Shown piece after piece: positions 25,674 through 40,000 of a stretch of DNA of 40,000 bases. Where the stretch lies: contig NZ_JAWDIR010000046.1 in the NCBI RefSeq assembly GCF_046156265.1, positions 91,358 through 131,357 of the forward strand, read 5' to 3'. The notes below the pieces were generated by a model, which saw only the letters and a program-made list of their open reading frames with translations, had not been told where the DNA came from and searched no databases. The stretch comes from Pseudoxanthobacter sp. M-2. GTDB lineage: Bacteria; Pseudomonadota; Alphaproteobacteria; Rhizobiales; Segnochrobactraceae. Position 1 is the first letter of the stretch. Every line of letters starts with the position of its first letter. Position numbers and translations under genes: made by a program.

Positions 25674-26057
25674 ATGTCCGACGCGAGGAAAGAACGCGTC
25701 TACACGCCGGAGGAGGTGACGGCGAAGCTCGCCGCCGAGCTGCCGCAGTGGCGCTTCGAGGACGGCTGGATCCGCCGCACCTACAAGACCGCCTCGTGGA
25801 AGGGGACGCTGATGGTGATCAACACCGTCGGCCACCTCGCCGAGGCCGCCTGGCACCATCCCGACCTCACCGCGTCCTATGCGTGGGTGGAGGTGCGGCT
25901 GCAGACCCACTCGGCCAAGGGCATCACCGACAAGGATTTCGCGCTCGCGAAGAAGATCGAGGAGGTGGTGCAGTGGCAGCCCGGCACCGAGGGATCGGGC
26001 CTCGAGGGCACCCCGCAGGGCGACCTCCGCTTCGCCTACGTCAAGTACGACACATGA
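25674..26057 (+). CDS. Pterin-4a-carbinolamine dehydratase (PCD/DCoH)-like protein
   Basis: GAGGGAGGA SD precedes the ATG at 25674. LPQWRFEDGWIRRTYKT...LMVINTVGHLAEAAWHHPDLTASYAWVEVRLQTHSAKGITDKDFALAKKIE shows the PCD fold signature (HHPD). About 30 extra residues follow at the C-terminus. The track ORF from 25572 is an extension. Confidence 0.8.
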   Translation: MSDARKERVYTPEEVTAKLAAELPQWRFEDGWIRRTYKTASWKGTLMVINTVGHLAEAAWHHPDLTASYAWVEVRLQTHSAKGITDKDFALAKKIEEVVQWQPGTEGSGLEGTPQGDLRFAYVKYDT

Positions 26058-26139
26058 CCGGCCTCCGAGATGCGGGCGCGGGCGCCCGGCCACGGGCGCC
26101 CCACCGCTGCGCGTGCACCGCGGGGAGCCCGCGCCTGCC

Positions 26140-27249
26140 ATGAGCGTGCGCATCGACGGCGAGGCGGCGAGCTTCGAGGACGCGATCGAGCGGGCGGCGG
26201 CGGTGCTGTCGGCCGGGCGCGCGCCCGTCGTCGCCGGGCTCGGCACCGACATTGCCGGCGTGCGGGCGGCGCTCAAGCTCGCCGAGCACCTGCGCGCCGC
26301 CGTCGGCCACAGCGCCGGTCCGGCGCTGGCGCGCGACATCGCCGTGCTGTCCGAGACCGGGCTCCTGTTCGCCACCCCGACCGAGGCCGGACGGCGAGCC
26401 GACACCGTGCTGCTCGTCGGCGATCTCGCCGCCCGCGCCGGCTGGCTCGCCGAGGTGTTCGGCCGGGATGGTGCGCCGACGCGGACGGTCGTGAGCCTCG
26501 CCGCCTCGGCGAAGGCTGCGGCGGCGCTGGACGCGGGGGGAACGCTGCTCGCGCTCGACATCAAGGGTCTCGGCGTGCGCGACACGCTGCTGGCGCTGAA
26601 GGCCCGCGTCGGCGGGCGACCGGTGGACGCGGCGCGTCTCGGTCGCACCGGCCTGCGTGATCTCGACAAGGCGGTGAAGACGCTCGCGGCCGCCCAGTAC
26701 GGCGTCGTCGTCTGGGACGCGGCCGATCTCGACGGTCTCGCCGTGGAGGCCGCCGCCGGCCTCGTGCGTGATCTCAACGCCGCCACGCGCTTTGCCGCCG
26801 TGCCATTCCCAGGCGACGACAACGCCGCCGGGACCGTGCTCGCCTGCGCCTGGACGACCGGCTTCCCGCCGCCGCTCGGCTTTCCCGGCGGCATCGCCAC
26901 CCATGATCCGTGGCGCTTCGACGTCGACCGCATGGTGGCGAGCGGCGAGGCCGACGCGGCGCTGTGGATTTCCGCGATGACGCCCGGCGCACCGACGTGG
27001 ACGCAGTCGCCGCCGACGGTGGCGCTGGTCGCCGCCGGCACCCGCTTCGCCACGCCGCCGGCCGTCGTCATCGAGGTGCGCCGGCCCGACCGCACCGCTG
27101 ACGCCGTTCTCCACGACGCCCGCACCAACACGCTCACGCCGGTGGCGGCGCCGCGCGGCAAGGCCGCCGCCGATGGCGCGCCGACGGTGGCGGCGGTGAT
27201 CGAGGCGATCCATCTCCGGCTCTCCGGCAAGGGTGGCGCGCCATGCTGA
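26140..27249 (+). CDS. fhcB: Formyltransferase/hydrolase complex subunit B (FmdB/FwdB homolog)
   Basis: MSVRIDGEAASFEDAIERAAAVLSAGRAPVVAGLGTDIAG...; about 369 aa. The stop overlaps the fhcA start (ATGCTGA). The upstream part of the track ORF (25879-26139) is Arg-rich and overlaps the PCD-like gene. Confidence 0.85.
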   Translation: MSVRIDGEAASFEDAIERAAAVLSAGRAPVVAGLGTDIAGVRAALKLAEHLRAAVGHSAGPALARDIAVLSETGLLFATPTEAGRRADTVLLVGDLAARAGWLAEVFGRDGAPTRTVVSLAASAKAAAALDAGGTLLALDIKGLGVRDTLLALKARVGGRPVDAARLGRTGLRDLDKAVKTLAAAQYGVVVWDAADLDGLAVEAAAGLVRDLNAATRFAAVPFPGDDNAAGTVLACAWTTGFPPPLGFPGGIATHDPWRFDVDRMVASGEADAALWISAMTPGAPTWTQSPPTVALVAAGTRFATPPAVVIEVRRPDRTADAVLHDARTNTLTPVAAPRGKAAADGAPTVAAVIEAIHLRLSGKGGAPC

Positions 27250-28880
27250 TCCGATTGAAGGGCGGCCGCGTCATCGATCCGGCGCATGACCGCGACGAGA
27301 TCGATGACATCTGGATGCAGGACGGCCGCATCGTCGCGCGGCCGCCGCGCGGGACCGAGCCGGATGCCGTCCACGACGTCTCCGGCAAGGTCGTCATGGC
27401 CGGCGGCATCGACATCCACAGTCACGTCGCCGGCGGCAACGTCACGCTGTCGCGGCTGCTGCTGCCGGAGCTGCACGAGGGCACCGAGGCGCCGCCGGAG
27501 GGCCAGCCGTTCGGCACCGCCCGCTGGTCGAGCTACGAGACCGGCCGGCTCTATGCCCGCATGGGCTTCACCACGGTCGTCGAGCCGGCCGTCGCCCCGT
27601 CGCAGGCGCTGCAGGCGCACCTCGAGCTCGCCGACCTGCCGATCCTCGACAAGGCGACCCTGTCGGTGCTCGGCAACGACGAGGTGCTGCTCGGGTTGAT
27701 GCGCGACAAGGCCGGCCGCGACGCCATCGCCGACTATGTCGGGCTGGTGGTGGCGAAGAGCCGGGCGATCGGCGTCAAGTGCATCAACGCCGGCGGCTCG
27801 GCCGCCTTCAAGGACAACGTCCGCACCTTCGGCCTCGACGACGTCATCCCGTCCTACGGGCTGTCGTCGCGGCAGATCTTCAAGGCGCTGCAGCAGGCGG
27901 TGGTCGACCTGCGCATCCGCCATCCGCTGCACCTGCACTGCAACAATCTCGGCGTCGCCGGCGCCATCGAGACGCTGACCGAGACGATCGAGGCGGCGGA
28001 CGGGTTGCCGCTGCACCTCGCCCACGTGCAGTTCTACGCCTATGGGCGCGAGGGCAAGCGCGGCTTCTCCTCCGGCGCGCAGCAACTGATCCGCTCCCTC
28101 AACCTCAACCCGAACGTCACGGTCGACGTCGGTCAGGTGATGTTCGGCCAGACGGTGACGATCTCGTCGGATTCGCTGCGGCAATACTCCGCCCACGCGC
28201 TCGCCAGCCCGAACAAGTGGATCGTCTGGGACGGCGAGGGCAACGGCGGCGGCATCGTGCCGTTCCACTACAAGGCCTCGAACGTCATCAACGCCCTGCA
28301 GTGGGCGATCGGGCTCGAGATCTTCCTGTCGGCGCACGACCCCTGGCAGGTGTTCTTCACCACCGACCATCCGAACGGCGCGCCGTTCACCACCTACCCG
28401 AAGATCCTGCACCTCCTGATGGACCGCGACGAGCGCGCCCGCTACATCGCCGGCCTGCCGAAGGCGGCGATGGCGCTGTCGGCGCTGCCCTCGATCACCC
28501 GCGAGTTCACGCTTCAGGAAGTGGCGATCATGACGCGCGCGGCACCGGCGCGCCTGCTCGGCCTGACCGACCGCGGCCACCTCGCGCCCGGCTCGATCGC
28601 CGACGTGTCGGTCTACACCGACACTGCCGACCGCACCGCGATGTTCGAGAGGGCGGCGCTGGTCTTCAAGGACGGTCATCTCGTCGTCCGCGATGGCGAG
28701 GTGACCGAGTACCGCTTCGGCCGCGCCGAGACCGTCGAGCCCGGCTTCGACAAGGGGATCGTGCGAAAGATCGACGGCCGGCTCGGCGACCTCTACGGCA
28801 CCGACACGCGGCAGTTCACGGTGCCGGCCGGCGCGATCGGCCGCGACGAACCGTTCCGGGTGCATCCATGCCGAAGCTGA
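27243..28880 (+). CDS. fhcA: Formyltransferase/hydrolase complex subunit A (FmdA/FwdA homolog, amidohydrolase fold)
   Basis: MLIRLKGGRVIDPAH...VVMAGGIDIHSHVAGG (metal-binding HxH context) ...HLHCNNLG...LHLAHVQFY...FFTTDHPNG is the typical FhcA/FwdA pattern. Confidence 0.9.
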   Translation: MLIRLKGGRVIDPAHDRDEIDDIWMQDGRIVARPPRGTEPDAVHDVSGKVVMAGGIDIHSHVAGGNVTLSRLLLPELHEGTEAPPEGQPFGTARWSSYETGRLYARMGFTTVVEPAVAPSQALQAHLELADLPILDKATLSVLGNDEVLLGLMRDKAGRDAIADYVGLVVAKSRAIGVKCINAGGSAAFKDNVRTFGLDDVIPSYGLSSRQIFKALQQAVVDLRIRHPLHLHCNNLGVAGAIETLTETIEAADGLPLHLAHVQFYAYGREGKRGFSSGAQQLIRSLNLNPNVTVDVGQVMFGQTVTISSDSLRQYSAHALASPNKWIVWDGEGNGGGIVPFHYKASNVINALQWAIGLEIFLSAHDPWQVFFTTDHPNGAPFTTYPKILHLLMDRDERARYIAGLPKAAMALSALPSITREFTLQEVAIMTRAAPARLLGLTDRGHLAPGSIADVSVYTDTADRTAMFERAALVFKDGHLVVRDGEVTEYRFGRAETVEPGFDKGIVRKIDGRLGDLYGTDTRQFTVPAGAIGRDEPFRVHPCRS

Positions 28881-29773
28881 AGGTCAACGGCATTGGCATC
28901 GACGAGGGCTTCGCCGAGGCCTTCGATATGGCCGCCACCGGCGTCGTCATCACCGCCGACACCCTCGAGTGGGCGCGCGTCGCCGCGGTCTCGATGACGG
29001 GCTTCGCCACCTCCGTCATCGCCTGCGGCTGCGAGGCCGGCATCGAGCGCGAGCTTACGCCCGACGAGACGCCGGACGGCCGCCCGGGTGTGCGGGTGCT
29101 CCTGTTCGGCTTCTCGCCGCAGATCTGCGAGACGCAGATCGTCACCCGCGTCGGCCAGTGCGTGCTCACCTGCGCCGGCACCGCCTGCTTCGCCGGCCTG
29201 CCCGACGGCACGCCGATCAAGCTCGGGGCGAGCCTGCGCTACTTCGGCGACGGCCACCAGATCGCCAAGCAGATCGCCGGCCGCCGCTACTGGCGCGTGC
29301 CGGTGATGGACGGCGAGTTCCTCGTCGAGCACCACACGTTTGCGGTCGAAGGCGCTGTCGGCGGCGGCAACCTCCTGTTCCTCGCCACCTCGCGGGCCGG
29401 CGCCCGCGCCGCCGCGGAAGCGGCGGTGACGGCGATGCGCGACGTGCCGGACGTCATCATGCCGTTCCCCGGCGGCGTGGTGCGGTCGGGCTCCAAGGTC
29501 GGCTCGAAGTACAAGGGCCAACCCGCGTCCACCAACGACGCCTACTGCCCGACGCTGAAGGGCGGCGTCAAAAGCGCCCTCGATCCGGAGATCGAGGCGG
29601 TGCTCGAAATCGTCATCGACGGGCTGTCGTTCGCTGCCGTGCAGGAGGCGATGCGCGCCGGGCTGCACGCGGCGGCGGCCCTTGGCCGTGAATCGGGTCT
29701 GCGCCGCATCGCCGCCGGCAACTATGGCGGCAAGCTCGGTCGCCACCACTTCCATCTGAAGGACCTCGTCTGA
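28868..29773 (+). CDS. fhcD: Formylmethanofuran:tetrahydromethanopterin N-formyltransferase (Ftr homolog)
   Basis: MPKLKVNGIGIDEGFAEAFDMAATGVVITA...MTGFATSVIACGCEAGIE...VRVLLFGFS; about 301 aa. Overlaps the fhcA 3' end by 13 nt. The remainder of the 27779-29773 track ORF is off-frame over fhcA. Confidence 0.9.
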   Translation: MPKLKVNGIGIDEGFAEAFDMAATGVVITADTLEWARVAAVSMTGFATSVIACGCEAGIERELTPDETPDGRPGVRVLLFGFSPQICETQIVTRVGQCVLTCAGTACFAGLPDGTPIKLGASLRYFGDGHQIAKQIAGRRYWRVPVMDGEFLVEHHTFAVEGAVGGGNLLFLATSRAGARAAAEAAVTAMRDVPDVIMPFPGGVVRSGSKVGSKYKGQPASTNDAYCPTLKGGVKSALDPEIEAVLEIVIDGLSFAAVQEAMRAGLHAAAALGRESGLRRIAAGNYGGKLGRHHFHLKDLV

Positions 29774-30576
29774 TGGGCGCGCTCACCTTCACCCTGAAGG
29801 CGCCCCCGGCGGTCCGGGTCGACCTCGCACCGCTGACGCCGGAAAAGCTCGCGGGGCTGAAGCCGCGGGAGATCGCGAAGTGGCCGCTGGTCGGCGGTCG
29901 CGACGGCCTCACCGTCGGCGATCTCTTCACCGTCCGCGCCGGTGACGCCGAGACCATCGTCATCGACGGCGGCTCGCTGCTGTTCGATTCGGTCGGCGCC
30001 GGCATGGGTGGCGGCGCGATCCGCGTCGTCGGCGACGTCGGCGCCCGCGCCGGCGCGGGCATGCGCGGCGGGCGTCTCGATGTCGAGGGCTCGGCCGGAC
30101 CCTGGCTCGCCGCCGGGCTCACGGAGGGGCGGGTGTCGGTCGCGGGCGATGCTGCAGAGCGCGCCGGCGGGGCGCTGCCCGGTCGCATGGCCGGCATGGC
30201 CGGCGGCATCCTCACCATCGGCGGCACGGCGGGGCCGCGCTGCGGCGACCGCATGCGCCGCGGCCTGATCGTCGCCGGCGCCTGTGGGCCCGAGGCCGGA
30301 TCGCGGATGATCGCCGGCACCATCCTCGCCACGCGCTTCGGAGCCGACGCCGGGGTGCTGATGAAGCGTGGCACGCTCATCGCCGGCGCTCTCGATGCAC
30401 CGCCGCTGCCGACCTTCGTGTCCTGCGGCGAGCACGACCTGCAGGTGCTGCCGATGCTCGCCGCCTGGGTCGCGACGCTCGGCCTCGCCGCTCCGCCGGC
30501 GGTGCCCCGCCGCGTGCTGCGCCTGCAGGGCGACATGGCTGCCCTGGGCCTGGGCGAGATTCTGCTCGCCGCCTGA
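29773..30576 (+). CDS. fhcC: Formyltransferase/hydrolase complex subunit C (FmdC/FwdC homolog, beta-helix Gly repeats)
   Basis: Repeated G-x-x-G-x-x-M-x-G-G units (GAGMGGGAIRVVGDVGARAGAGMRGGRLDVEG...MAGGILTIGG). The start overlaps the fhcD stop (TGATG). Confidence 0.88.
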   Translation: MGALTFTLKAPPAVRVDLAPLTPEKLAGLKPREIAKWPLVGGRDGLTVGDLFTVRAGDAETIVIDGGSLLFDSVGAGMGGGAIRVVGDVGARAGAGMRGGRLDVEGSAGPWLAAGLTEGRVSVAGDAAERAGGALPGRMAGMAGGILTIGGTAGPRCGDRMRRGLIVAGACGPEAGSRMIAGTILATRFGADAGVLMKRGTLIAGALDAPPLPTFVSCGEHDLQVLPMLAAWVATLGLAAPPAVPRRVLRLQGDMAALGLGEILLAA

Positions 30577-30776
30577 GCATCCGGGACGCCTTCGGCAGAG
30601 ATCCCGCGACGGCATCACCCCCGTGGCGCTCCGGCCGGGCCCGGGACCCAATCCGTCCACCTCGCATCCGCCCCAGGCGACACCGTGCGCGGCGATGCAG
30701 CGCCGTCGCCCGCGGCCGGTCTGCTGCCGCACGGTGACGGTTGCTGCAGGCTGCTCGCGCGATCGTGAGGGCTAGC

Positions 30777-30792
30777 TGGCATTCTTCCTGCA
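30777..30792 (+). promoter_or_regulatory. Sigma54-like -24/-12 element (TGGCATTCTTCCTGCA)
   Basis: GG and GC dinucleotides have exactly the canonical spacing of TGGCAC-N5-TTGCW. The motif lies in a locally AT-richer patch about 150 nt upstream of the first small Cys-protein ORF. No enhancer-binding protein gene is in the window. Confidence 0.3.
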
Positions 30793-30943
30793 GGTTCTTA
30801 GGCACGAGACAGCGGTTCCCGCGAAGAACGGGGCCGTCGTGGCGGGGCGGTCTTGGACCAGCCCCCCGGGGGAGCGAGACGCGCGAGGTCAACCCGGCCG
30901 CCGAGGCTGTTCGACCAGCCGGCGGTCCATGGAGCGACCTGCC

Positions 30944-31153
30944 GTGGAAATCGTCATCACCGTCTGTGCCCTGCTCGCCGCCCACCCCTGCGAGGACCGC
31001 TCGATCGGCCTCGATCCGGAGGCGCGAATCACGCCGGCCACCTGCATGATGCAGGCGATGCCGATCGTCGCGCAGTGGGCGAGCGAGCATCCGAAGCTCG
31101 TGGTCAAGCGCTGGCGCTGCGCCGACCGCTCACGCAAGGAGTGGCCGGTCTGA
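30944..31153 (+). CDS. Small (about 69 aa) conserved-Cys hypothetical protein, paralog A
   Basis: GTG at 30944, with GGAG at 30931-30934; an alternative in-frame ATG is at 30929. It aligns along its length with the next ORF: VEIVITVC...C-ED...C-M..AMP..AQWA..HP..V.K.WRCA. G/C-rich third positions. Confidence 0.6.
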   Translation: MEIVITVCALLAAHPCEDRSIGLDPEARITPATCMMQAMPIVAQWASEHPKLVVKRWRCADRSRKEWPV

Positions 31154-31310
31154 CGGTCCAGTCGCAGGGATGTGATGTCGCAGAGGGCATCCATTCCCGC
31201 CGAGGCGCGTAAAAGTTCCCGTCAAACCCGGCGATCGGCGGGCTTCGGCGCGGCACTCACGGCTAGCCGCGCCCGCTCCGCGCAGCGACCGCTGCCCGAG
31301 GGGAAAGCCC

Positions 31311-31517
31311 GTGGAACTCATCGTCTTCGTCTGCCTCGTCGCCAATGCCGCCGTCTGCGAGGAACAGCACCTCTCGGTCGCGCTGGAGCCCGTGCCGCAG
31401 TCGCTCTGCATGGCGAAGGCGATGCCCCATCTCGCCCAGTGGGCCGGGGATCATCCGCAGTTCGTCATCAAGAAATGGCGTTGCGCCATTCCCGGCATGG
31501 ACGGCCGCGAGATCTGA
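31311..31517 (+). CDS. Small (68 aa) conserved-Cys hypothetical protein, paralog B
   Basis: GTG at 31311 with GAGGGGA 6 nt upstream. MELIVFVCLVANAAVCEEQ...LCMAKAMPHLAQWAGDHPQFVIKKWRCA is paralogous to 30944-31153. Protein-level conservation despite diverged DNA supports coding. Confidence 0.65.
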   Translation: MELIVFVCLVANAAVCEEQHLSVALEPVPQSLCMAKAMPHLAQWAGDHPQFVIKKWRCAIPGMDGREI

Positions 31518-31788
31518 GACGCCCGATCGTCGCCCGGTGACTCGGCGGGTGAGGCGGGGCCTGGCAGGCTCGACCGTCGTTTGCGGGCGCTCGGCACGGT
31601 GATCTTCGGGGCATTGTTCCCGGGGGGCTTGGCGTGACGGCCGCTTTCGGCCTCTACTGCGCCGCGGGTGACGATCGCCGCCGCCGGCGGTGATACCCCC
31701 ACGGATCGGGAGCCGTGCGGCACGCACCACGAACCTGGCCTCGCCGCGTCCCGGCGACGGAGCGCCCCTGCGCGGGTGGCCGGCGGCG

Positions 31789-33531
31789 ATGAGGCGCGCG
31801 CTCACCCTGCTGCGCTCGCTGCGCGCCCGCTTCCTGCTCGCCGTCGGCCTGCTCGCGCTGGTCGCCATGGCGGCGGCGGTGGCGCTCGTCGTCGGCATCT
31901 CGGCGGCGACGCGCGACATCGACACGGCGGCGGCGGCGCACCGCCGGGTCGAGCTCCTCGGTGCGCTGTCGGCCCGCGTCTCCGACTATGCGGTGCTGCT
32001 GCTGCAAGCGCTGGCGCCGGCCGCCACGGCGCCGCAGGGCGGCGGTGCCGACGTCGCCGGGACGCGCCTCGACAGCGCCCGCGTCCAGGTCGAGCGCGCC
32101 TTCGTCGACCTCGACGGCGCCCTGCGCGCCGAGATCGACCGCACCCCGGACGCCGACGGCAAGACGATGGTCGCGACGCGCTCGATCGTACTCGCCCGAA
32201 TGCGCGCCCGCTTCCAGTCGCTCGACCGCCAGGTACAGCCGCTGGTGTTCGGCCACGCCGGCGACCCCGCCGCCGATGCCGGCCGGCTGCGCGCCATGCT
32301 CGACACCTTCGCCACCTCGTTCGCGCCGCTGCTCGCCGAACTCATCGATGAGGAGCGCCGCACCTCATCGCTCGCACAGACCGAGACGAAGTCTCTGCGC
32401 GGCCGGCTGACGATGCTCGGCGTCGCCGCCGTCTGCGCCGTGCTGCTGCTCGCCGGCTTCGTCTATCTCGGCATCGTGCGGCCGGTGGCCACGCGCGCCG
32501 CCGCCGTCGCGCGGGCGGTGGGCGACATCGGCGCGGGCCGCTTCGACACCCGCCTCGCGATCGGCGGCCGCGACGAGCTCAGCCTGCTGATGCTCAGCGT
32601 CAACCGCATGGCGTCGCGCCTCGCCCGGCGCGAGGCCCGCGTCGACGCCGACCGGGCGCGGCTCACCGAGATCATCGAGGCGAACACCGCCGACCTGCGC
32701 GCCGCCAACCGCGCGCTCGAGGAGACCGACACCGCCCGCCGGCGCTTCTTCGCCGATGTCAGCCACGAGTTGCGCACGCCGCTCACCGTCATCCTCGGCG
32801 AGGCTGACGTGACGCTGCGCGCCGCCCAGAACCCGGAGCCGGTCTACCGGGCGGCGCTGACGACGATCCGTCAGCGCGGCCGCCGCCTCCGCCGCCGCGT
32901 CGAGGACCTGTTGCGCGTGGCGCGCTCGGAGAGTGGCCAGATCGAGCTCGCCGACGCCGATTTCGACGTAGCCCGGATGGTGTCGGAGGCCGTCGAGGAC
33001 GTCTCGGCCCTTGCGCGGGCCGCCGGCGTCCGGCTCGAGGCGACGCTGCCGCATAGCGGCTGCACCGCTCACGGCGATGCCGACTGGCTGCGGCAAGTCG
33101 TCGCCGGGGTGCTGGAGAATGCCGTCCGCCACTCGCCGCCGGGAGGCACCGTCGGGGTCCTCGCGCGCGCGGGCGGGGATACCATCGCGGTGACTGTCGT
33201 CGACGAGGGACCCGGCATCGCCGCGGAGGTGCTGCCGCACGTCTTCGAGCGGTTCTATCGGGGCGGCGACAGTGCCGAGCGCGGGCTCGGCTATGGCATC
33301 GGCCTGTCGCTTGCCAAGTGGATCGTCGATCAACATCATGGCGCCGTCGAAATCGAGAGCCCCGCGCGCCCGGATGGGTCGCAGGCGGGGACCGGGACGG
33401 ACGGCGCGCAGTCCGTGTCCTCCGGCGAAGCGGGATTGGGAGCCCGCCCGCCGGGAACACGGGTCACACTGCGGCTGCCGGCAGTCCGTCCGGCCGATCC
33501 GTCGGTCATGGTGATGGGAGGACAGGCGTGA
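31789..33531 (+). CDS. Sensor histidine kinase (TM - periplasmic domain - TM - HAMP - HisKA - HATPase_c)
   Basis: MRRALTLLRSLRARFLLAVGLLALVAMAAAV (TM1). Second transmembrane segment LTMLGVAAVCAVLLLAGFVYLGIV. HAMP domain. H-box FFADVSHELRTPLTVILGE. N, G1 and G2 boxes (ENAVRHSPPGG; VVDEGPGI; GYGIGLSLA). Start chosen at the ATG 31789 rather than 31690. Confidence 0.85.
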   Translation: MRRALTLLRSLRARFLLAVGLLALVAMAAAVALVVGISAATRDIDTAAAAHRRVELLGALSARVSDYAVLLLQALAPAATAPQGGGADVAGTRLDSARVQVERAFVDLDGALRAEIDRTPDADGKTMVATRSIVLARMRARFQSLDRQVQPLVFGHAGDPAADAGRLRAMLDTFATSFAPLLAELIDEERRTSSLAQTETKSLRGRLTMLGVAAVCAVLLLAGFVYLGIVRPVATRAAAVARAVGDIGAGRFDTRLAIGGRDELSLLMLSVNRMASRLARREARVDADRARLTEIIEANTADLRAANRALEETDTARRRFFADVSHELRTPLTVILGEADVTLRAAQNPEPVYRAALTTIRQRGRRLRRRVEDLLRVARSESGQIELADADFDVARMVSEAVEDVSALARAAGVRLEATLPHSGCTAHGDADWLRQVVAGVLENAVRHSPPGGTVGVLARAGGDTIAVTVVDEGPGIAAEVLPHVFERFYRGGDSAERGLGYGIGLSLAKWIVDQHHGAVEIESPARPDGSQAGTGTDGAQSVSSGEAGLGARPPGTRVTLRLPAVRPADPSVMVMGGQA

Positions 33532-34322
33532 TGAGCGTTTCCGGCATCGGTCCGGGGGCTTCGGCGCGCGCGGACGTCCGGTCGGATCAGGCCGGACCGA
33601 CGCTCGGCGGTGGCCGTTCTGTGCCGCCCGTCGCGGGCGATACCGCCGCCATCCTCGTCGTCGAGGACGATCCGGACATCGGCGGCTTCCTGCAGCGCGG
33701 CTTCCGGGCCGAGGGCTTCGCCGTCGAGCTCGTCGAGAGCGCCGACGCGGCGCTGGCGCTGGCGCTGCACCAGTCCTTCGACGCCGTCATCCTCGACGTC
33801 ATGCTGCAGGGCTCGTCGGGCCTCGATCTCTGCCGTTCGCTGCGCCAGATCGGCGTGACGAGCCCGATCCTGATGCTGTCAGCGCGCACCGCCGTTCCCG
33901 ACCGGGTGGAGGGGCTCGCGGCCGGGGCGGACGACTACATCGCCAAGCCCTTCGATTTCGACGAGCTGCTCGCCCGCCTCGCCGTCCAGCAGGTGCGCCG
34001 TCGCGACGACGATACCGGGCGGCTCGCGGTCGGCGACCTCGTGCTCGAGCTCGGCACCCGCACGGTCGTCAGCGGTGAGCATCGGGCGACGCTCACCGAA
34101 CGCGAGGCGGAGCTCTTGGCGCTGCTGATGCGCAACGCCGGCAAGCCGCTGACGCGCGGCCAGATCTTCGAGACGATGTGGGCGGGCCAGGGCGGCGCCG
34201 CCGTCAACGTCGTCGACGTCTACATCGGCTACCTGCGCCGCAAGCTCAGCCCCAACGGCGGCTCCGGCGAAACCCCGATCCGCACCATCCGCGGCCGCGG
34301 CTTCCTGCTCGCCGCCGACTGA
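33531..34322 (+). CDS. OmpR/PhoB-family response regulator (receiver plus winged-helix)
   Basis: ILVVEDDPDIGGFLQRGFRAEGF...AVILDVMLQGSSGLDLC...PILMLSAR...GADDYIAKPFDFDELLAR, then LTEREAELLALLMRNAGKPLTR...YIGYLRRKL...IRTIRGRGF. The ATG overlaps the kinase stop (TGATG). An alternative GTG start at 33621 would remove a ~30-aa low-complexity leader. Confidence 0.88.
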   Translation: MSVSGIGPGASARADVRSDQAGPTLGGGRSVPPVAGDTAAILVVEDDPDIGGFLQRGFRAEGFAVELVESADAALALALHQSFDAVILDVMLQGSSGLDLCRSLRQIGVTSPILMLSARTAVPDRVEGLAAGADDYIAKPFDFDELLARLAVQQVRRRDDDTGRLAVGDLVLELGTRTVVSGEHRATLTEREAELLALLMRNAGKPLTRGQIFETMWAGQGGAAVNVVDVYIGYLRRKLSPNGGSGETPIRTIRGRGFLLAAD

Positions 34323-34403
34323 ACCGCGGGCGGCCCGGCCGCAGCGAGCGCACGCGCGCCCGCTGCGATGCCGACCGCTCGACCTGTCCGACTGGAGTAC
34401 CCG

Positions 34404-35090
34404 ATGCGCCTGACGATGAGCACCCTGATCGCCGCCGCCCTCGCCGCCACGTTCGCGGCGGCGCCGGCGAAGGCCGCGGAGGCGACGGCGACGTCGCTCC
34501 TGTTCGAGAATGCACACTTCAACACGCTGCCGGACGGCACGGTGCTGTCCTACCGTTATGAGCGCGACACCGTCGACCCGGCCAAGCTCGGCGGCGCCTT
34601 CGAGGACGACATCAAGCTGACGCTCGGCACGCCGGGTCCCGACGGTCGGCGGGAGATCGTCGTGCAACTGTTCTCCGGCGATCGCCGCAAGCCGGCCGGG
34701 CCGTTCTCGCAGATGCTCGGCAATCCGCTGGTGATGCTGTTCCTCGAGGCGGACGTGAACGTCATGAAGGAACTCGTCGGCGGCAATCCGCGCTATCTGC
34801 GCAACAAGATCCGCGCGGCCTTCCGCGACGCCGGCAACGTCGAGGCGACGACGGTCACCGTCGACGGCGTCGAGGTGCCGGCGGAGCGCATCCGCCTGAA
34901 GCCGTTCGCCGACGACGTCCATCGCGCCGAGCTCGGGGCCTTCGTGGAGAAGACCTATGAGTTCGTCGTGTCCGACAAGGTGCCGGGCTCGCTCGTGCTC
35001 CTGCGCGCCGTCACCCCCCAGCTCGCCGGAACGGGCGAGCCCTATCTCGAGGAGGAGATCCGCTATGTCGGTGCCGCTCCCAAAGGCTGA
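34404..35090 (+). CDS. Secreted hypothetical protein (signal peptide, no domain recognised)
   Basis: GGAG at 34394-34397 before the ATG at 34404. Signal peptide MRLTMSTLIAAALAATFAAAPAKA|AE. Balanced, non-low-complexity composition with G/C-rich third positions. Confidence 0.65.
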   Translation: MRLTMSTLIAAALAATFAAAPAKAAEATATSLLFENAHFNTLPDGTVLSYRYERDTVDPAKLGGAFEDDIKLTLGTPGPDGRREIVVQLFSGDRRKPAGPFSQMLGNPLVMLFLEADVNVMKELVGGNPRYLRNKIRAAFRDAGNVEATTVTVDGVEVPAERIRLKPFADDVHRAELGAFVEKTYEFVVSDKVPGSLVLLRAVTPQLAGTGEPYLEEEIRYVGAAPKG

Positions 35091-35442
35091 GGCGCTCGGC
35101 GCCGTCCTCGTCGCGCTGGCCCTCGCCATCGCCGCACCCGCGTCCGCCCAGTCCCCGACGGACTTGCCGAACGACTATCCGACCATCACCCGCGCCGACT
35201 ATGTGTTCGGCTGCATGGCAGCGAACGGCGAGACGCGGACGGCGCTCGAGCGTTGCTCGTGCTCGATCGACGTCATCGCCTCGGTGCTGCCCTATGATCG
35301 CTACGTGCAGGCCGAGACGATCCTCAGCGTCGGCCGCGTCGGGGGCGAGAAGACGTCGATGTTCAAGTCTTCGCCGGTGATGAACAAGATCGTCGCCGAA
35401 CTGCGCCGGGCCCAGGCGGAGGCGGAGATCCGCTGCTTCTGA
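35065..35442 (+). CDS. Secreted 4-Cys hypothetical protein (signal peptide)
   Basis: GGAGGAG at 35051-35057 lies 7 nt before the ATG at 35065. Signal peptide ...LALAIAAPASA|QS. The mature part has YVFGCMAANG...CSCSIDVIAS...and a C-terminal RCF. Overlaps the preceding gene by 26 nt. Confidence 0.65.
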   Translation: MSVPLPKAEALGAVLVALALAIAAPASAQSPTDLPNDYPTITRADYVFGCMAANGETRTALERCSCSIDVIASVLPYDRYVQAETILSVGRVGGEKTSMFKSSPVMNKIVAELRRAQAEAEIRCF

Positions 35443-36403: not shown

Positions 36404-36801
36404 GCGACCAGATCACAGACCAGATCACCCTTGCCAACGTCGCCTACTTCGCCCGCCACGGCCTGCACCCGGAGGAAGAGCGGCTCGGCCAGCGCTTCTA
36501 TGTCGACCTGACGGTGGACATCGACCTGTCGGCGGTGGGGCGAAGCGACGATTTCGCCGACACCGTCGGCTACGACAAGCTGCTCGACGTCGTCGGCGAG
36601 GTGGTCGCGGGCGAGCGGGTGAGCCTCATCGAGGTCCTGGCCGACCGTATCGCCCGCGCGGTGCTCCTGCGCTTCGACAAGATCACCGCGAGCGTCGTCA
36701 CCGTGCGCAAGCCGAGCGCACCGGTCGAGGGCATCCTCGACCACGTCGCCGTGACGGTCCGCCGGCGGCGCGAGGCTCCGGGCGGCTCCGATGCCGCCTG
36801 A
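36400..36801 (+). CDS. folB: Dihydroneopterin aldolase
   Basis: FARHGLHPEEERLGQRFYVDL...DTVGYDKL...LIEVLADRIA...V.VRKPSAP shows the FolB pattern. The start overlaps the folP stop (ATGA). Confidence 0.85.
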   Translation: MSDQITDQITLANVAYFARHGLHPEEERLGQRFYVDLTVDIDLSAVGRSDDFADTVGYDKLLDVVGEVVAGERVSLIEVLADRIARAVLLRFDKITASVVTVRKPSAPVEGILDHVAVTVRRRREAPGGSDAA

Positions 36802-37428: not shown

Positions 37429-38346
37429 ATGACGGCGACCGGGCGAAACCTTCAGAGTGCAGCTCTGGCGCTGGCGCTGGTCGCCGGTGGCCTCGGCACG
37501 ACCCTTCTCGTGGCACCCGCCTCGGCCCAGGAGGTAGCTCAGCCGGCCGCCCAGGAGCCGGCCGAGACGACTTGGGAGGCGATCCGGGCCGATGTCGTCG
37601 GCGACACGGCGATCACCGCCGGCGAGGGCATCGTCGAGATCGAGGCGCCCTACCGCGCCCATGACGCCGCCATCGTGCCGATCGACGTCACCGCCCGGCT
37701 GCCCGAGGGGCGGACGGTGAAGCGGATGACGCTCGTCATCGACGAGAACCCGGCCCCCGTCGCCGCCACCTTCACCTTCGGCGAGCCGCAGGCGGAGATG
37801 GCGGTGTCGACGCGCGTGCGCATCAACTCCTACTCGTGGGTGCGCGCCATCGTCGAGGCGGATGACGGCTCGCTCTACATGTCGCGGCGCTATGTGAAGG
37901 CCTCCGGCGGCTGCTCGGCGCCGGCCCTGAAGGACGCCGACGCGGCGCTCGCCCAACTCGGCAAGATGAAGGTCCGCTTCCCCGAGGGCGCGGAAAAGGC
38001 GGCGACCTCGACGCCGGTTGCGGTGCCGTCCGCCAGCACCACGGCGGATGCGGGCGGAGCCAAGCGCCTGAAGGCGCAGATCATGATCCGCCACCCGAAC
38101 TATTCGGGCCTGCAGATGAACCAGCTGACCCAGCTCTACATCCCGGCCCATTTCGTCAACGACATCGAGATCAGCCAGGGCGGCCAGATGCTCCTGAAGA
38201 TGGAGGGCGGCATCTCGCTGAGCGAGGATCCGACCATCGCCTTCGATTTCGTCTCGAACGGCTCGCCGGTGCTGGACGTGAAGGCGATCGACACCGACGG
38301 CCAGGTCTTCTCCGGCGCCTTCCCGGTGGACACGGGCCGCTCGTGA
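37429..38346 (+). CDS. Quinoprotein-dehydrogenase-associated fused SoxY-SoxZ-like carrier protein (periplasmic)
   Basis: Signal peptide ...LLVAPASA|QE. SoxY-like Ig fold (IVEIEAPYRAHDAAIVPIDV; MTLVIDENPAPVAATF) ending in ASGGCSAP (Cys codon 37912-37914). A linker follows, then a SoxZ-like domain (IMIRHPNYSGLQMNQLTQLYIPAHFVNDIEISQGG). Confidence 0.8.
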   Translation: MTATGRNLQSAALALALVAGGLGTTLLVAPASAQEVAQPAAQEPAETTWEAIRADVVGDTAITAGEGIVEIEAPYRAHDAAIVPIDVTARLPEGRTVKRMTLVIDENPAPVAATFTFGEPQAEMAVSTRVRINSYSWVRAIVEADDGSLYMSRRYVKASGGCSAPALKDADAALAQLGKMKVRFPEGAEKAATSTPVAVPSASTTADAGGAKRLKAQIMIRHPNYSGLQMNQLTQLYIPAHFVNDIEISQGGQMLLKMEGGISLSEDPTIAFDFVSNGSPVLDVKAIDTDGQVFSGAFPVDTGRS

Positions 38347-39347
38347 GGCACGCTCTCGCCGCCGCCTCCCTGGCGGCGGCGCTGATGGCGGTGGCGCCGG
38401 TCGAGGCCGTCGCCGCCGCGGACGGCGCCCCGGCCGCCGGCACAGCGAGCCCCCCGGGGGCGTCCGCCCCTCCCACTTCAACCACCGTCGCCCCTCTCGC
38501 GGTCGCAGAGGTGGCGCCCGGCGTGTTCGTCCATGAGGCGCCGTTCGCGCTGATTGCGCCGGCAAACCGCGGCGACATCGCCAACCTCGGCTTCATCATC
38601 GGCGACGACGCGGTCGCGGTGATCGACACCGGCGGCAGCGTCGCCGTGGGACAGGGGCTGCTGGCGGCGGTGCGCGCTCGCACCGACAAGCCAGTGCGCT
38701 ACGTCGTCAACACCCACGTCCACCCGGACCACCTCGCCGGCAACGCCGCCTTCACGGCCGAGGGGGCGAAGATCGTCGGTCACCACAAGCTCGCCCGTGC
38801 GCTGGCCGCCCGCGCGCCCTTCTACCGCGAGCAGGCCGACCGCCAGCTCGCCCCCGCGGATGCTGCGCAGAGCGACTTCCTGCCCCCCGACCTCGCCGTG
38901 GAGGGAACGATGCGCCTCGATCTCGGCGGGCGCGAACTGGTGCTCGAGGCTCATCCGACGGCGCACACCGACGCCGACCTCTCCGTGCTGGACGTCGAGA
39001 CCGGCACCTGGTTCCTCGGGGACCTGCTGTTCGCCGGCCACCTGCCGACGATCGACGGCTCGCTGACCGGCTGGCTGGCCGAGATGGACCGCCTCGCCGA
39101 ACGCCCGGTGGCGCGTGTCGTGCCCGGCCACGGCCCGCGCGTGATGGCCTGGCCGGAGGCGCTGGCGCCACAGCGGCGCTACCTCGCGCGAATCGCCTCC
39201 GACGTCCGGACGCTGATCGCCGAAGGCCGTTCGATCTCTGCTGCGGCGGAGACCGCCGGCCTCAGCGAACGCGAGATGTGGGCGCTGTTCGAGGAGTTCA
39301 ATCCGCGCAATGCGACGGCGGCTTTCCAAGAGCTGGAGTGGGAGTAG
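38343..39347 (+). CDS. Periplasmic metallo-beta-lactamase-fold zinc hydrolase ('quinoprotein relay system' type)
   Basis: GTG start overlaps the carrier gene's stop (GTGA). Signal peptide AAALMAVAPVEA. HVHPDH (HxHxDH) at 38715-38732. Later His/Asp ligand contexts (EAHPTAHTDAD; VVPGHG). Confidence 0.8.
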   Translation: MRHALAAASLAAALMAVAPVEAVAAADGAPAAGTASPPGASAPPTSTTVAPLAVAEVAPGVFVHEAPFALIAPANRGDIANLGFIIGDDAVAVIDTGGSVAVGQGLLAAVRARTDKPVRYVVNTHVHPDHLAGNAAFTAEGAKIVGHHKLARALAARAPFYREQADRQLAPADAAQSDFLPPDLAVEGTMRLDLGGRELVLEAHPTAHTDADLSVLDVETGTWFLGDLLFAGHLPTIDGSLTGWLAEMDRLAERPVARVVPGHGPRVMAWPEALAPQRRYLARIASDVRTLIAEGRSISAAAETAGLSEREMWALFEEFNPRNATAAFQELEWE

Positions 39348-39428: not shown

Positions 39429-39643
39429 CGCTTCAGTTTCCGACTGCAGCGGCGACCCGTTTGGGAGCGGGCCGTCCGGTTCGAAGGCCGAGCGGGCGCC
39501 ATGCCCAGCGACAATGACCGGACAAAGTCCGGCAGGCCGTGACACGCTGTCGGGAGCGTTGGTCCCAATAACAGGAAGTCGGCGGGTGTGCGCCTGTGCG
39601 TACGCGCGTGTCGACTCTCGGGAAAACGCAAGGAGGAACTGGC

Positions 39644-40000
39644 ATGAGGCGATCCGCTTGGTCGTCCATGGTGGCGGCCCTGCCGCTCATGGTCACCGCG
39701 CCTGCTCTGGCGAACGACGACCTGATGAAGCTGATCGACGACCCCAACCAGTGGGTCATCCAGACCGGCGACTACGCCAACACCCGCTACTCGAAGCTCG
39801 ACCAGATCAACAAGAGCAACGTCAAGGATCTTCAGGTCGCCTGGACGTTCTCGACGGGTGTGCTGCGCGGTCACGAGGGCTCGCCTCTCGTCATCGGCAA
39901 CATGATGTACGTCCATACGCCGTTCCCCAACATCGTCTATGCGCTCGACCTCGACAAGGAAGCGCAGATCGTCTGGAAGTATGAGCCCAAGCAGGATCCG
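39644..40000 (+). CDS. PQQ-dependent methanol/ethanol-family dehydrogenase (XoxF/MxaF family), N-terminal fragment running off the window
   Basis: This ORF is absent from the track because it has no stop in the window. AAGGAGGA SD precedes the ATG at 39644. MRRSAWSSMVAALPLMVTAPALA|NDDLMKLIDDPNQWVIQTGDYANTRYSKLDQINKSNVKDLQVAWTFSTGVLRGHEGSPLVIGNMMYVHTPFPNIVYALDL matches the N-terminal propeller blades of XoxF/MxaF. Confidence 0.9.
   Translation, partial: MRRSAWSSMVAALPLMVTAPALANDDLMKLIDDPNQWVIQTGDYANTRYSKLDQINKSNVKDLQVAWTFSTGVLRGHEGSPLVIGNMMYVHTPFPNIVYALDLDKEAQIVWKYEPKQDP

Follow-up and report, generated by a model that had tools for sequence, protein, structure and literature searches.

Tandem four-cysteine mini-proteins beside the fhc operon of Pseudoxanthobacter sp. 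M-2 belong to an alphaproteobacterial family recurrent in methanol- and formaldehyde-oxidation islands

Results

Gene content of the window

Two short open reading frames on the same strand, here called copy A and copy B, lie in a 40,000-nucleotide stretch of the Pseudoxanthobacter sp. M-2 genome (the window) among genes for one-carbon (C1) oxidation and signal transduction (Table 1). The first-pass annotation of this DNA placed the pair between the fhc operon and a two-component system, a location that holds, with fhcC ending at 30576 and the kinase gene starting near 31690; the start of fhcB is uncertain. The sensor histidine kinase has two predicted transmembrane segments and a periplasmic loop, and NCBIfam yields only generic kinase matches for it, with no identification as MxbD or MxcQ. 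Downstream of the response regulator are genes for two exported proteins, exp230 and exp115. In many related loci exp230 comes after the regulator genes, and exp115 is the commonest unannotated companion of the small gene (25 of 83 loci), found also in Sinorhizobium, Azospirillum, Roseomonas, Rhizobium and Microvirga. The end of the window cuts the PQQ-dependent dehydrogenase gene, of which only the first ~160 codons lie inside. Promoter, terminator and Rfam scans of positions 30400–31800 found nothing.

Table 1. Features surrounding copies A and B, in window coordinates.
Feature	Position	Strand	Basis
fhcB-fhcA-fhcD-fhcC (formyltransferase/hydrolase complex)	25879..30576	+	Pfam Amidohydro_3, FTR/FTR_C, GXGXG; TIGR03129, TIGR03122
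GGAG, putative Shine-Dalgarno-like sequence, 9 nt 5′ of the GTG of A	30931..30934	+	Read from sequence
Copy A, four-Cys small protein, 69 aa (Cys8, 16, 34, 59)	30944..31153	+	ORF list, GTG start
GAGGGG, putative Shine-Dalgarno-like sequence, 7 nt 5′ of the GTG of B	31298..31303	+	Read from sequence
Copy B, paralogue of A, 68 aa	31311..31517	+	ORF list, GTG start
Sensor histidine kinase, HAMP-HisKA-HATPase	31690..33531	+	Pfam; start codon uncertain
OmpR-type response regulator	33630..34322	+	Response_reg + Trans_reg_C
exp230, exported protein, ~230 aa	34368..35090	+	No Pfam/NCBIfam match; position conserved
exp115, exported four-Cys protein, ~115 aa (FGCMAANG...ERCSCSID)	35062..35442	+	Translation; start approximate
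Quinoprotein dehydrogenase-associated SoxYZ-like carrier	37429..38346	+	TIGR04557, 270 bits (cut-off 140)
Quinoprotein relay system zinc metallohydrolase 2	38343..39347	+	TIGR04559, 403 bits (cut-off 280)
PQQ-dependent (methanol/ethanol family) dehydrogenase, N-terminal part	39514..39984	+	tblastn with PQQ-dehydrogenase references

Coding status of copies A and B

Both frames are found on the positive strand where the first-pass annotation had located them, each opening with GTG-GAA and each preceded, by reading, by the Shine-Dalgarno-like sequence reported for it (GGAG for A, GAGGGG for B). An ATG at 30929, which had been entertained as an alternative start for A, is unsupported, since the copy A orthologues (88–96% identity) are called at 69 aa and members of the wider family begin 1–4 residues before the ‘EL’ of strand 1. 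The identity of roughly 40% estimated by eye between the two copies becomes 42% over 62 residues by BLASTP (E 2e-17), a sequence similarity that is far above chance level, and the alignment pairs all four cysteines, the AMP..AQWA..HP block and the K.WRC end of the two copies.

Selection on the encoded proteins, also claimed earlier, is borne out by dN/dS values of 0.1–0.3, i.e., purifying: 0.10–0.21 for A and 0.22–0.32 for B among three Pseudoxanthobacter genomes, and a median of 0.10 over 158 Methylocystis ortholog pairs. In the same three Pseudoxanthobacter genomes the two frames are 93–96% identical and free of gaps, whereas the flanking spacers are only 35–82% identical and contain indels. 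The GC content at codon positions 1/2/3 (0.64/0.51/0.90 in A and 0.68/0.41/0.86 in B) resembles that of adjoining genes, and the intergenic stretches are flat by position at ~0.7. Ribosome and peptide evidence comes from a homologue in S. meliloti, SM2011_b20161, which is among the Ribo-seq-translated ORFs of that organism and was detected by mass spectrometry with 2 PSMs past filters (PMC10117765 Table S4).

That A and B are non-genes, either chance open frames in GC-rich DNA or the remnant of one, might be argued from the 71% GC content, at which open frames are often found, and from the removal of the S. meliloti homologue from RefSeq in 2017. This reading has practically no probability left and is already refuted by the score of A against B, the residues that are invariant across hundreds of homologues, the dN/dS values, the coding-type GC pattern, the conservation of the frames above their flanks, the confident AlphaFold (AF2) folds of both copies and the mass-spectrometric detection of one homologue. 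Sequence analysis thus confirms A and B as genuine divergent paralogous genes.

A large family of four-cysteine proteins

An exhaustive profile search (E ≤ 1e-3) returned 909 clusters at 50% identity, with a homologue length of consistently 66–72 aa. Conservation of the cysteine pattern among homologues had been set as a test of the pair, and all four cysteines are retained in 331 of 335 distinct sequences, at the invariant spacing C-x7-C-x17-C-x24-C and with no CxxC. Trp45, His49-Pro50 and Trp57 are likewise invariant, residue 58, immediately before Cys59, is always Arg, Lys or His, and the N-terminus is short and constant in length. Several paralogues per genome occur, many of them carried on chromids or plasmids. 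Members are named “hypothetical” in the sources, except for one automatic ‘Secreted protein’ label.

The earlier failure to assign the pair to any named family stands after database searches. Neither A nor B has an NCBIfam match at E ≤ 10, their sole Pfam match is a spurious TM-domain at E 0.098, none of 94 diverse members matches Pfam at E ≤ 0.01, and the PDB yields no match by sequence profile and no significant fold match. The CxxC knuckles of zinc-ribbon or rubredoxin-like proteins and the CxxCxxCxxxCP motif of 4Fe-4S ferredoxins, including the FwdG type, are absent; metal binding via another, non-CxxC geometry may occur. No member matches the Pfam models of MxaI (the MDH beta-subunit), PqqA or PqqD, and true PqqA and PqqD have annotated genes of their own in adjoining positions. 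Literature searches returned no functional description of the family, of SMb20161, or of small proteins near fhc. Judged by these searches, A and B belong to a large alphaproteobacterial family of ~68-residue proteins that has yet to be described.

Three further relationships were considered and rejected. A phage origin found little in a tblastn search of 50,697 phage records, which gave one marginal match (E 0.04); fold matches in BFVD to uncharacterised phage mini-proteins are weak (best E 2.7e-3). Extra small ORFs between the small gene and the kinase gene in Methylopila and Hansschlegelia, tried as distant paralogues, have no HMM match. The assignment of A as the ‘fhc-type’ and B as the ‘kinase-type’ orthologue disagrees with a neighbour-joining tree of 87 members, a weak tree built on 68 residues, in which neither copy joins the kinase-adjacent clade; an Acuticoccus member is placed close to A, and B has a long branch close to the Methylocystis clade.

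Predicted fold, cysteine pairing and localisation

The AF2 models of A and B (mean pLDDT 87.2 and 86.6) share one beta-beta-alpha-beta topology, with predicted strands at residues 2–9, 17–22 and 52–60 and a helix at 31–48. The top Foldseek match in the PDB, YkzG, is non-significant (probability 0.6, TM 0.51–0.65, E 0.7, 7% identity), and the small fold is probably new. Mean-field covariation over the 335 sequences (Meff 226) recovers the register of the strand 1–strand 2 hairpin and one strand 2–strand 3 contact, and gives only artefacts at invariant columns, the cysteines included. Secondary-structure order and these few contacts suggest that the cysteines pair up, with one pair at each end of the fold: Cys8/Cys16 would sit near His49 and Trp45, and Cys34/Cys59 near Met35, Trp57 and Arg/Lys58.

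The hydrophobic N-terminus had been read as a possible weak signal peptide, which these data speak against. Residues 2–9 form a core strand in both models (pLDDT ~92), and the hydrophobic stretch includes the invariant Cys8, which has only 7 residues ahead of it. Asp or Glu occurs within the first 5 residues of 239 of the 335 members, and Lys or Arg within the first 8 residues of just 3. A lipobox (L-[AS]-[GA]-C) is absent, the sequence at Cys8 being L-T-V-C, 7 residues from the start and with no basic n-region. Nor is there a conserved N-terminal extension anywhere in the family, the longer database versions being mis-called starts (the P0094 cluster, for example, is 64–67 aa in RefSeq). A buried N-terminal strand of this kind, acidic in character and only exceptionally basic, is not a signal peptide, and family members are therefore most simply placed in the cytoplasm.

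Genomic context of the family

The sample of genomes was seeded by a scan with a single peptide pattern, is therefore biased, and is phylogenetically redundant. In ~70 of its ~90 loci, with at least four orders of Alphaproteobacteria represented, the small gene has one of three C1 settings: it lies directly 3′ of fhcBADC; it heads a two-component module, whose kinase is of either of two unrelated types, with fae or GSH-formaldehyde genes alongside; or it falls within an XoxF-type PQQ-dehydrogenase/SoxYZ-like “quinoprotein relay” cluster. The position of A and B within a C1 island, to which the first-pass annotation had attached its functional suggestion, is thus no accident, since across many lineages relatives accompany fhc and fae as well as genes for XoxF-type PQQ dehydrogenases and for sensor kinases.

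The first setting, in which the small gene adjoins fhcC, accounts for 38 loci in at least five lineages, with the order fhcBADC then small gene in Methylocystis (23 loci), Aurantimonadaceae, Pseudoxanthobacter, Prosthecomicrobium and two MAGs. Genes further 3′ vary (putA versus AhpC/HAD), so fhc and the small gene form a conserved unit. This adjacency makes the small protein a candidate fifth subunit of the Fhc complex, yet the family also occurs without fhc nearby.

In the second setting, as seen in Methylopila, Ancylobacter, Hansschlegelia and MAGs, a HAMP kinase and an OmpR regulator come after the small gene and a divergent fae lies upstream of it; the small-gene-then-kinase order of the window recurs in Prosthecomicrobium and in the first three of these genera. 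On pSymB of S. meliloti the small gene precedes genes for a response regulator, a FIST protein and a hybrid kinase, beside GSH-formaldehyde dehydrogenase, fghA and xoxF, a different kinase architecture with the position of the small gene unchanged; fhc is missing from this neighbourhood and probably from the genome. Salipiger has the small gene divergent from HAMP kinase-RR-pqqABCDE, and the kinase-RR-pqqABCDE order, shared with Ancylobacter and Prosthecomicrobium, resembles mxbDM-pqq of M. extorquens.

Elsewhere, xoxF-xoxG-xoxJ lies directly downstream of the small gene in Roseomonas, the small gene is inside an H4MPT/fhc island in Azospirillum, and it belongs to PQQ-dehydrogenase clusters in Phyllobacterium, Bradyrhizobium, Acidisphaera and Mesorhizobium. 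Many members, as in Methylocystis, Aurantimonadaceae and Phyllobacterium, have no regulator nearby. The ~20 loci in non-C1 contexts, among housekeeping or otherwise unrelated genes, include a Hyphomicrobium-like group beside parC/ate/phaC, as well as Oharaeibacter, Paracoccus sp. MA, Cereibacter and M. bullatum, and on account of these loci the core biochemical role may be more general than C1 metabolism.

These loci would also favour a general small cytoplasmic protein with a non-C1 role, merely travelling with mobile C1 islands or chromids, such as a modulator that binds other proteins in the manner of the RNA-polymerase epsilon/Gp2-type mini-proteins. Multiple paralogues per genome, the chromid or plasmid location of many copies, the RNAP-binding YkzG as weak top fold match (E 0.7) and the weak matches to phage mini-proteins would be consistent with such a role, which is nevertheless unlikely. 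At least four orders show the adjacency, with varied gene orders and with partner sets as different as fhc, fae, two-component systems and xoxF, which makes passive hitchhiking a poor explanation, and the unit of fhc and small gene is kept despite changing downstream genes. The fold matches are non-significant and sequence comparison yields essentially no phage homologue; YkzG and T7 Gp2 have a similar size and a comparable beta/alpha mini-fold, but lack the cysteine pattern and are found in Gram-positive bacteria and phages. The family has been recruited repeatedly into methanol/formaldehyde-oxidation islands, and its recurrent adjacency to the genes of these pathways makes it a candidate for a missing part of C1 metabolism or its regulation.

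Discussion

The first-pass annotation had suggested a ‘thiol- or metal-based accessory or signalling’ role for the pair, which would fit both the invariant cysteines and the recurrent adjacency to regulators. We propose, tentatively and as a possibility short of a probable one, that the family protein is a cytoplasmic thiol-based sensor or adaptor at the formaldehyde node. The cysteine pairs would respond to a rise in free formaldehyde, or in the linked thiol/redox state, by a change of state that might be a methylene bridge, an S-hydroxymethyl adduct or a disulfide. In this altered form the protein could then bind a partner, whether the neighbouring kinase, a regulator or the Fhc complex, and this binding would tune the capacity for C1 oxidation. 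The tandem A and B would represent two modules with diverged surfaces, set between the enzyme operon and the kinase. Several points weigh against such a sensor: sensing through a periplasmic loop, as expected of the window kinase, does not obviously need a cytoplasmic co-sensor, many members lack a nearby regulator, ~20 loci have non-C1 contexts, the four invariant cytoplasmic cysteines could fit a structural metal site equally well, and the operon partners in PQQ clusters are mostly periplasmic.

The known formaldehyde sensors FrmR (of the CsoR/RcnR family), HxlR and NmlR/AdhR all use reactive cysteines, placed near a second nucleophile, and their genes lie beside formaldehyde-detoxification genes; in the family described here, Cys59 is always preceded by Arg, Lys or His, and the brief N-terminus does not vary in length. 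These sensors are transcription factors that bind DNA, and their folds and Pfam families are known, whereas A and B have no DNA-binding domain, no Pfam match to any of them and a predicted beta-beta-alpha-beta fold instead. A and B are not members of these families, and any likeness, which would be chemical only, is a lead. The connectors PmrD, SafA and MzrA offer another comparison, being tiny proteins encoded, like the small gene, beside a kinase and response regulator; the small gene keeps its position even where the kinase type changes. They differ in having no sequence or fold relation to the family, and known connectors are mostly enterobacterial and several are membrane peptides. Many members of the present family have no regulator nearby.

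A stronger form of the sensor proposal, which we regard as quite improbable, would make the family the missing cytoplasmic receptor for free formaldehyde or C1 load, switching FlhSR-, MxbDM- and MxcQE-like systems and/or Fhc. Formaldehyde would bridge or modify one cysteine pair, and the modified mini-protein would switch adjacent two-component systems. If true, this would explain formaldehyde sensing by regulators whose signals are without identification: no signal has been identified biochemically for the formaldehyde-responsive FlhSR, whose FlhS is predicted to reside in the cytoplasm (bioRxiv 10.1101/2023.12.12.567942), and MxcQE and MxbDM lack known ligands (PMC9260416). The same gap leaves room for the milder sensor or adaptor proposed above.

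The four cysteines, with His49 and Met35/36, might instead hold Zn, an Fe-S cluster or Cu(I), at a site that could lie in one chain or across a dimer, in a structural adaptor, assembly factor or metallochaperone that serves C1 oxidation, with Fhc and the relay zinc hydrolase as examples of its client enzymes. This metal-binding accessory is doubtful, though by no means negligible. It accords with the invariant cysteines and histidine and conserved Met and Trp in a leaderless protein, hence one of a reducing compartment, with the terminal position of the small gene in fhc clusters of several lineages and with the zinc metallohydrolase genes often nearby. Production of the protein in minimal medium without C1 substrate fits a constitutive structural factor (PMC10117765). 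The cysteine spacing, lacking CxxC knuckles and a ferredoxin motif, argues against a metal site, as does the predicted topology, which suggests two separate cysteine pairs and not a single site. Moreover, the M. extorquens Fhc complex was reportedly purified and solved as FhcABCD, with no fifth subunit, and the family is present in contexts, and probably in genomes, without fhc.

Two separate pairs would equally match two structural disulfides, as in a periplasmic, disulfide-stabilised component of the ‘quinoprotein relay’ that folds in the cytoplasm, is exported leaderless by Tat hitchhiking, and works with the SoxYZ-like carrier, the relay hydrolase and exp115/exp230. The commonest neighbours of the small gene are exported proteins, namely these four together with cytochrome c, solute-binding proteins and the PQQ dehydrogenase, and one member carries the label ‘Secreted protein’. 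SoxZ provides a precedent, as it is exported leaderless by Tat hitchhiking on SoxY, and the small gene likewise encodes a small leaderless protein beside a SoxY/SoxZ-like carrier; no family member, however, matches the SoxZ Pfam model. We give this periplasmic reading a low probability: hitchhiking export is rare, the ‘Secreted protein’ name is automatic, the family has neither a signal peptide nor a conserved N-terminal extension, and the fhc- and fae-adjacent genes have a cytoplasmic setting. The PQQ-dehydrogenase accessory set (TIGR04557, TIGR04558/9, the beta-propeller TIGR03866 and the binding protein TIGR03863) shares neighbourhoods with the small gene, and for both the role is inferred from conserved context. 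Unlike that set, the small family has no curated model and no export signal, and its genes also follow fhcBADC far from PQQ genes.

What is new here is the genomic context of the four-cysteine family; a function as thiol sensor or adaptor is what we infer from it, with the metal-binding accessory and the Tat-hitchhiking periplasmic protein as live rivals. Methylotrophs must balance the making of toxic formaldehyde against its removal, and an overlooked, conserved and translated four-cysteine mini-protein is a genetically tractable candidate for a missing component of this balance. Even as a metal accessory or relay component, it would represent a new protein family with, probably, a new small fold, and the ‘quinoprotein relay’ set, itself poorly understood, gains two more unannotated exported families in exp115 and exp230.

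Paired small genes in the C1 island

In the window, an H4MPT-linked C1 island, the small genes A and B lie between the fhc operon and a two-component module (see table). The same-strand ORFs, GTG-GAA starts and Shine-Dalgarno-like sequences described in the first-pass annotation are present, and its by-eye estimate of ~40% identity agrees with BLASTP (42%, E 2e-17), in an alignment that matches all four cysteines as well as the AMP..AQWA..HP block and the K.WRC end. An ATG at 30929 was rejected as the start of A, as orthologues are 69 aa long and family members start 1-4 residues before the first strand.

Features of the window and of comparison loci (exp115 and exp230, exported proteins; L-handles, comparison loci)
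Feature	Position	Strand	Remarks
citG-like gene, mptN, mch, mptG, pterin-carbinolamine-dehydratase-like gene			first in order, before fhcB
fhcB-A-D-C	25879-30576		before A and B
GGAG	9 nt 5′ of A start	+	Shine-Dalgarno-like, purine-rich, read from sequence
ORF A	30944-31153	+	69 aa, start GTG-GAA
GAGGGG	7 nt 5′ of B start	+	Shine-Dalgarno-like, purine-rich, read from sequence
ORF B	31311-31517	+	68 aa, start GTG-GAA
HAMP-HisKA-HATPase kinase	31690-33531		two predicted TM segments, after B
OmpR-type regulator	33630-34322		after kinase
exp230	34368-35090	+	~230-240 aa, exported, no family match
exp115	~35062-35442, inside ORF 34957-35442	+	~115 aa, exported, no Pfam/NCBIfam family
folP-folB-folK	35558-37303	+	between regulator module and SoxYZ-like carrier
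Quinoprotein-dehydrogenase-associated SoxYZ-like carrier	after folK		TIGR04557
Quinoprotein relay zinc metallohydrolase 2	after SoxYZ-like carrier		TIGR04559
PQQ dehydrogenase, methanol/ethanol family	39514-39984	+	N-terminal part, cut by window end
S. meliloti 1021 member (L083)	NC_003078.1 179642-179851		pSymB
S. meliloti 2011 member, SM2011_b20161	pSymB 179642-179851		69 aa, by translation
S. meliloti entry L084	11992-12201
Two extra exported proteins	L074 7543-8273; L080 7434-8161; L081 7348-8216; L082 7543-8240

At codon positions 1/2/3, A has a GC fraction of 0.64/0.51/0.90 and B one of 0.68/0.41/0.86, resembling fhcC, fhcD and the kinase, while spacers are flat at ~0.7. Across three Pseudoxanthobacter genomes both ORFs are gap-free and 93-96% identical, and their flanking spacers share 35-82% identity with indels. 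The dN/dS values among these genomes (A, 0.10-0.21; B, 0.22-0.32) and Methylocystis orthologues (median 0.10, 158 pairs) bear out the earlier proposal that selection acts on the protein. A and B are coding, and there is practically no chance that they are not genes. Tandem pairs were found only in Pseudoxanthobacter and one MAG among the loci examined; an admittedly weak tree does not group A with B as sisters, so the pair is old.

Elsewhere in the island, the first ~25 codons of the kinase ORF (31690-31760) share 71% identity, with indels, with loci L001/L002, below the rest of the gene, and the true start is probably downstream of 31690. The folP-folB-folK genes presumably supply the pterin branch in the synthesis of H4MPT or dephospho-H4MPT. 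With only its N-terminal part in the window, the PQQ dehydrogenase is at most a candidate lanthanide-type XoxF.

A family without described relatives

The first-pass annotation could not assign A and B to a named family, and they belong to none: neither matches Pfam or NCBIfam, and 94 diverse relatives have no Pfam match. Word-index searches returned few close relatives, every one named 'hypothetical'. A search of the sensitive kind proposed earlier, in which a profile was run exhaustively against 1.84 billion cluster representatives, recovered 909 proteins with E<=1e-3, 194 of them with E<=1e-10. Length is almost always 63-75 aa, longer versions being mis-called starts. Named members are Alphaproteobacteria only, comprising Methylocystis, Methylopila, Hansschlegelia, Ancylobacter, Prosthecomicrobium, Oharaeibacter, Mesorhizobium, Rhodomicrobium, Sinorhizobium, Rhizobium, Bradyrhizobium, Phyllobacterium, Microvirga, Azospirillum, Roseomonas, Acidisphaera, Paracoccus, Salipiger and Cereibacter; Pseudoxanthobacter soli MAGs match the window at 94-96%.

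All four cysteines are kept in 331 of 335 distinct sequences, in which Trp45 (99%), Pro50 (96%), Ala43 (95%), Trp57 (94%), His49 (92%) and Arg/Lys58 (75%) are also conserved, as are, strongly, Pro14, Pro40 and Met35/36. The family motif is [IMV]-[ED]-L-[VI]-L-T-V-C-x4-P-x2-C-x-E ... C-M-M-x-A-x-P-x-I-A-x-W-x3-H-P-x-W-x-V-x-R-W-R-C.

AlphaFold2 models built with a 102-sequence alignment are confident for both A (pLDDT 87.2, pTM 0.72) and B (pLDDT 86.6) and share one topology: strand 2-9, strand 17-22, helix 31-48 and strand 52-60. Foldseek gave no significant match in the PDB (best E 0.65); the most probable was the RNA polymerase epsilon subunit YkzG (TM ~0.5-0.65, non-significant), and among viral models the matches, to uncharacterised phage mini-proteins, were all weak. 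The family profile did not match PDB sequences, and no paper describing a function was found in the literature. Neither its sequence nor its fold has a described relative and its function is unpublished; it is thus new as a protein family, with a mechanism that is still hypothetical.

Of the two options raised earlier for the hydrophobic N-terminus, it is a buried core strand and not a signal peptide. Lys or Arg occurs in the first eight residues of 3/335 members, Asp or Glu in the first five of 239/335, and the invariant Cys8 lies inside the hydrophobic stretch; the protein is therefore most simply read as cytoplasmic. An unlikely alternative is a relay component of the periplasm that lacks its own leader and is exported by hitchhiking on Tat, which would suit the PQQ-dehydrogenase neighborhoods described below. 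Strand order and a few covariation contacts would place Cys8 and Cys16 close to His49/Pro50 and Trp45 at one end of the sheet, and Cys34 and Cys59 close to Met35, Trp57 and Arg58 at the opposite end. Four invariant cysteines would also suit a metal-binding accessory or assembly factor, a role that we regard as only slightly less likely than the thiol switch proposed below.

Translation is supported in S. meliloti 2011, where SM2011_b20161 is among 3758 Ribo-seq-translated ORFs (Table S4, Hadjeras et al. 2023) and 58 small proteins passing mass-spectrometry filters (2 PSMs); it is marked 'not in RefSeq 2017 anymore' and is absent from the manually curated set of 85 (PMC10117765). A PhaR study (PMC12542648) reports co-regulation of its neighbors SMb20163/20164 with fdh, fghA and gfa. 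S. meliloti has a second paralogue, protein cluster P0094, with annotated lengths from 64 to 186 aa across records.

Genomic settings of the small gene

Some 90 loci were compared. A genome scan that took the pattern A[QK]W[AS][GS][ED]HP[KQN] as its seed supplied 73, exact-protein look-ups nine, and plasmid or chromid records ten. The small gene recurs beside fhc, xoxF and the kinase, the three neighbors suggested for mapping, in three settings: after fhc, heading a signaling module, or inside a PQQ-dehydrogenase cluster.

In the first, it lies 0.1-0.5 kb 3′ of fhcB-A-D-C on the same strand, in 23/23 Methylocystis/Methylocystaceae loci, Aurantimonadaceae (Jiella, Fulvimarina, Aurantimonas, Antarcticirhabdus), Pseudoxanthobacter, Prosthecomicrobium and two MAGs. 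Because the genes that follow vary (putA in Methylocystis, AhpC/HAD in Jiella), fhc and the small gene form a conserved unit.

The second setting (Methylopila, Hansschlegelia, Ancylobacter and related MAGs) has the order divergent fae, small gene, (two exported proteins), HAMP kinase, OmpR regulator, exp230 and exp115, with a PQQ-associated beta-propeller/binding protein set and an SsuA-like ABC transporter upstream and SoxYZ-like or pqqABCDE genes downstream. On S. meliloti pSymB the gene holds the same position with a different kinase architecture, preceding a response regulator, FIST, hybrid kinase, exp230 and exp115, then the SoxYZ-like carrier, relay hydrolase 2, GSH-dependent formaldehyde dehydrogenase, fghA, cytochrome c and xoxF. 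In Salipiger it is divergent from a HAMP kinase-response regulator-pqqABCDE set.

The third setting is exemplified by Phyllobacterium (cytochrome c, small gene, SsuA-like ABC transporter, relay hydrolase, SoxYZ, PQQ dehydrogenase) and occurs in Bradyrhizobium, Acidisphaera, Mesorhizobium xinjiangense, Rhizobium gallicum and Microvirga. The small gene is immediately 5′ of xoxF-xoxG-xoxJ in Roseomonas, and in Azospirillum is followed by exp115, adjoining SoxYZ, relay hydrolase and H4MPT/fhc genes.

About 20 loci have none of these C1, PQQ or signaling genes within ~8 kb, including a Hyphomicrobium-like group (beside parC, arginyl-transferase and phaC), Oharaeibacter, Paracoccus sp. MA, Cereibacter, M. 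bullatum and a few more. These would fit a general mini-protein with a role outside C1 metabolism, which is improbable given the recurrence of the other settings.

Several companions were observed. The four-cysteine exp115 (motif DYPT..ADYVFGCMAANGxTRE..ERCSCSID) lies beside the small gene, SoxYZ-like carrier and PQQ dehydrogenases in 25/83 loci, is also found in Sinorhizobium, Azospirillum, Roseomonas, Rhizobium and Microvirga, and looks like a further undescribed member of the quinoprotein-relay gene set. In Pseudoxanthobacter, Methylopila, Hansschlegelia, Ancylobacter, S. meliloti and Roseomonas, exp230 always comes just behind the response regulator and is followed by exp115. Between small gene and kinase, Methylopila-/Hansschlegelia-type loci carry two extra unannotated exported proteins (144-147 aa and 81-88 aa), rejected as relatives of the small family. 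In several lineages (L075, L080, L082 and the P0228 place), a DUF3280 (PF11684) ORF of ~0.5 kb lies 5′ of the SsuA/NMT1-like binding protein of the transporter accompanying the small gene.

Possible role

The small protein is a conserved, translated, leaderless four-cysteine protein of a fold with no known relative, repeatedly recruited to formaldehyde- and methanol-oxidation gene sets, including directly before two unrelated kinds of two-component system. The putative thiol- or metal-based accessory or signaling role first suggested from location is supported in its general form by this recurrent adjacency to C1 and regulatory genes, and not in its signal-peptide detail. We infer that formaldehyde is the common denominator of fhc, fae, the GSH-formaldehyde genes and XoxF and, to our knowledge, all characterised formaldehyde sensors use reactive cysteines. 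The signal of FlhSR is unidentified, FlhS being predicted to be cytoplasmic (bioRxiv 10.1101/2023.12.12.567942), and no ligand is known for MxcQE or MxbDM (PMC9260416). On these grounds we tentatively propose that the family may serve the formaldehyde node from the cytoplasm, as a thiol-switch sensor or adaptor. Against this proposal, the window kinase senses via a periplasmic loop, many members have no nearby regulator, some are in non-C1 contexts, and the arrangement of the cysteines is a prediction. S. meliloti and Methylocystis are model organisms in which the small family is readily testable.
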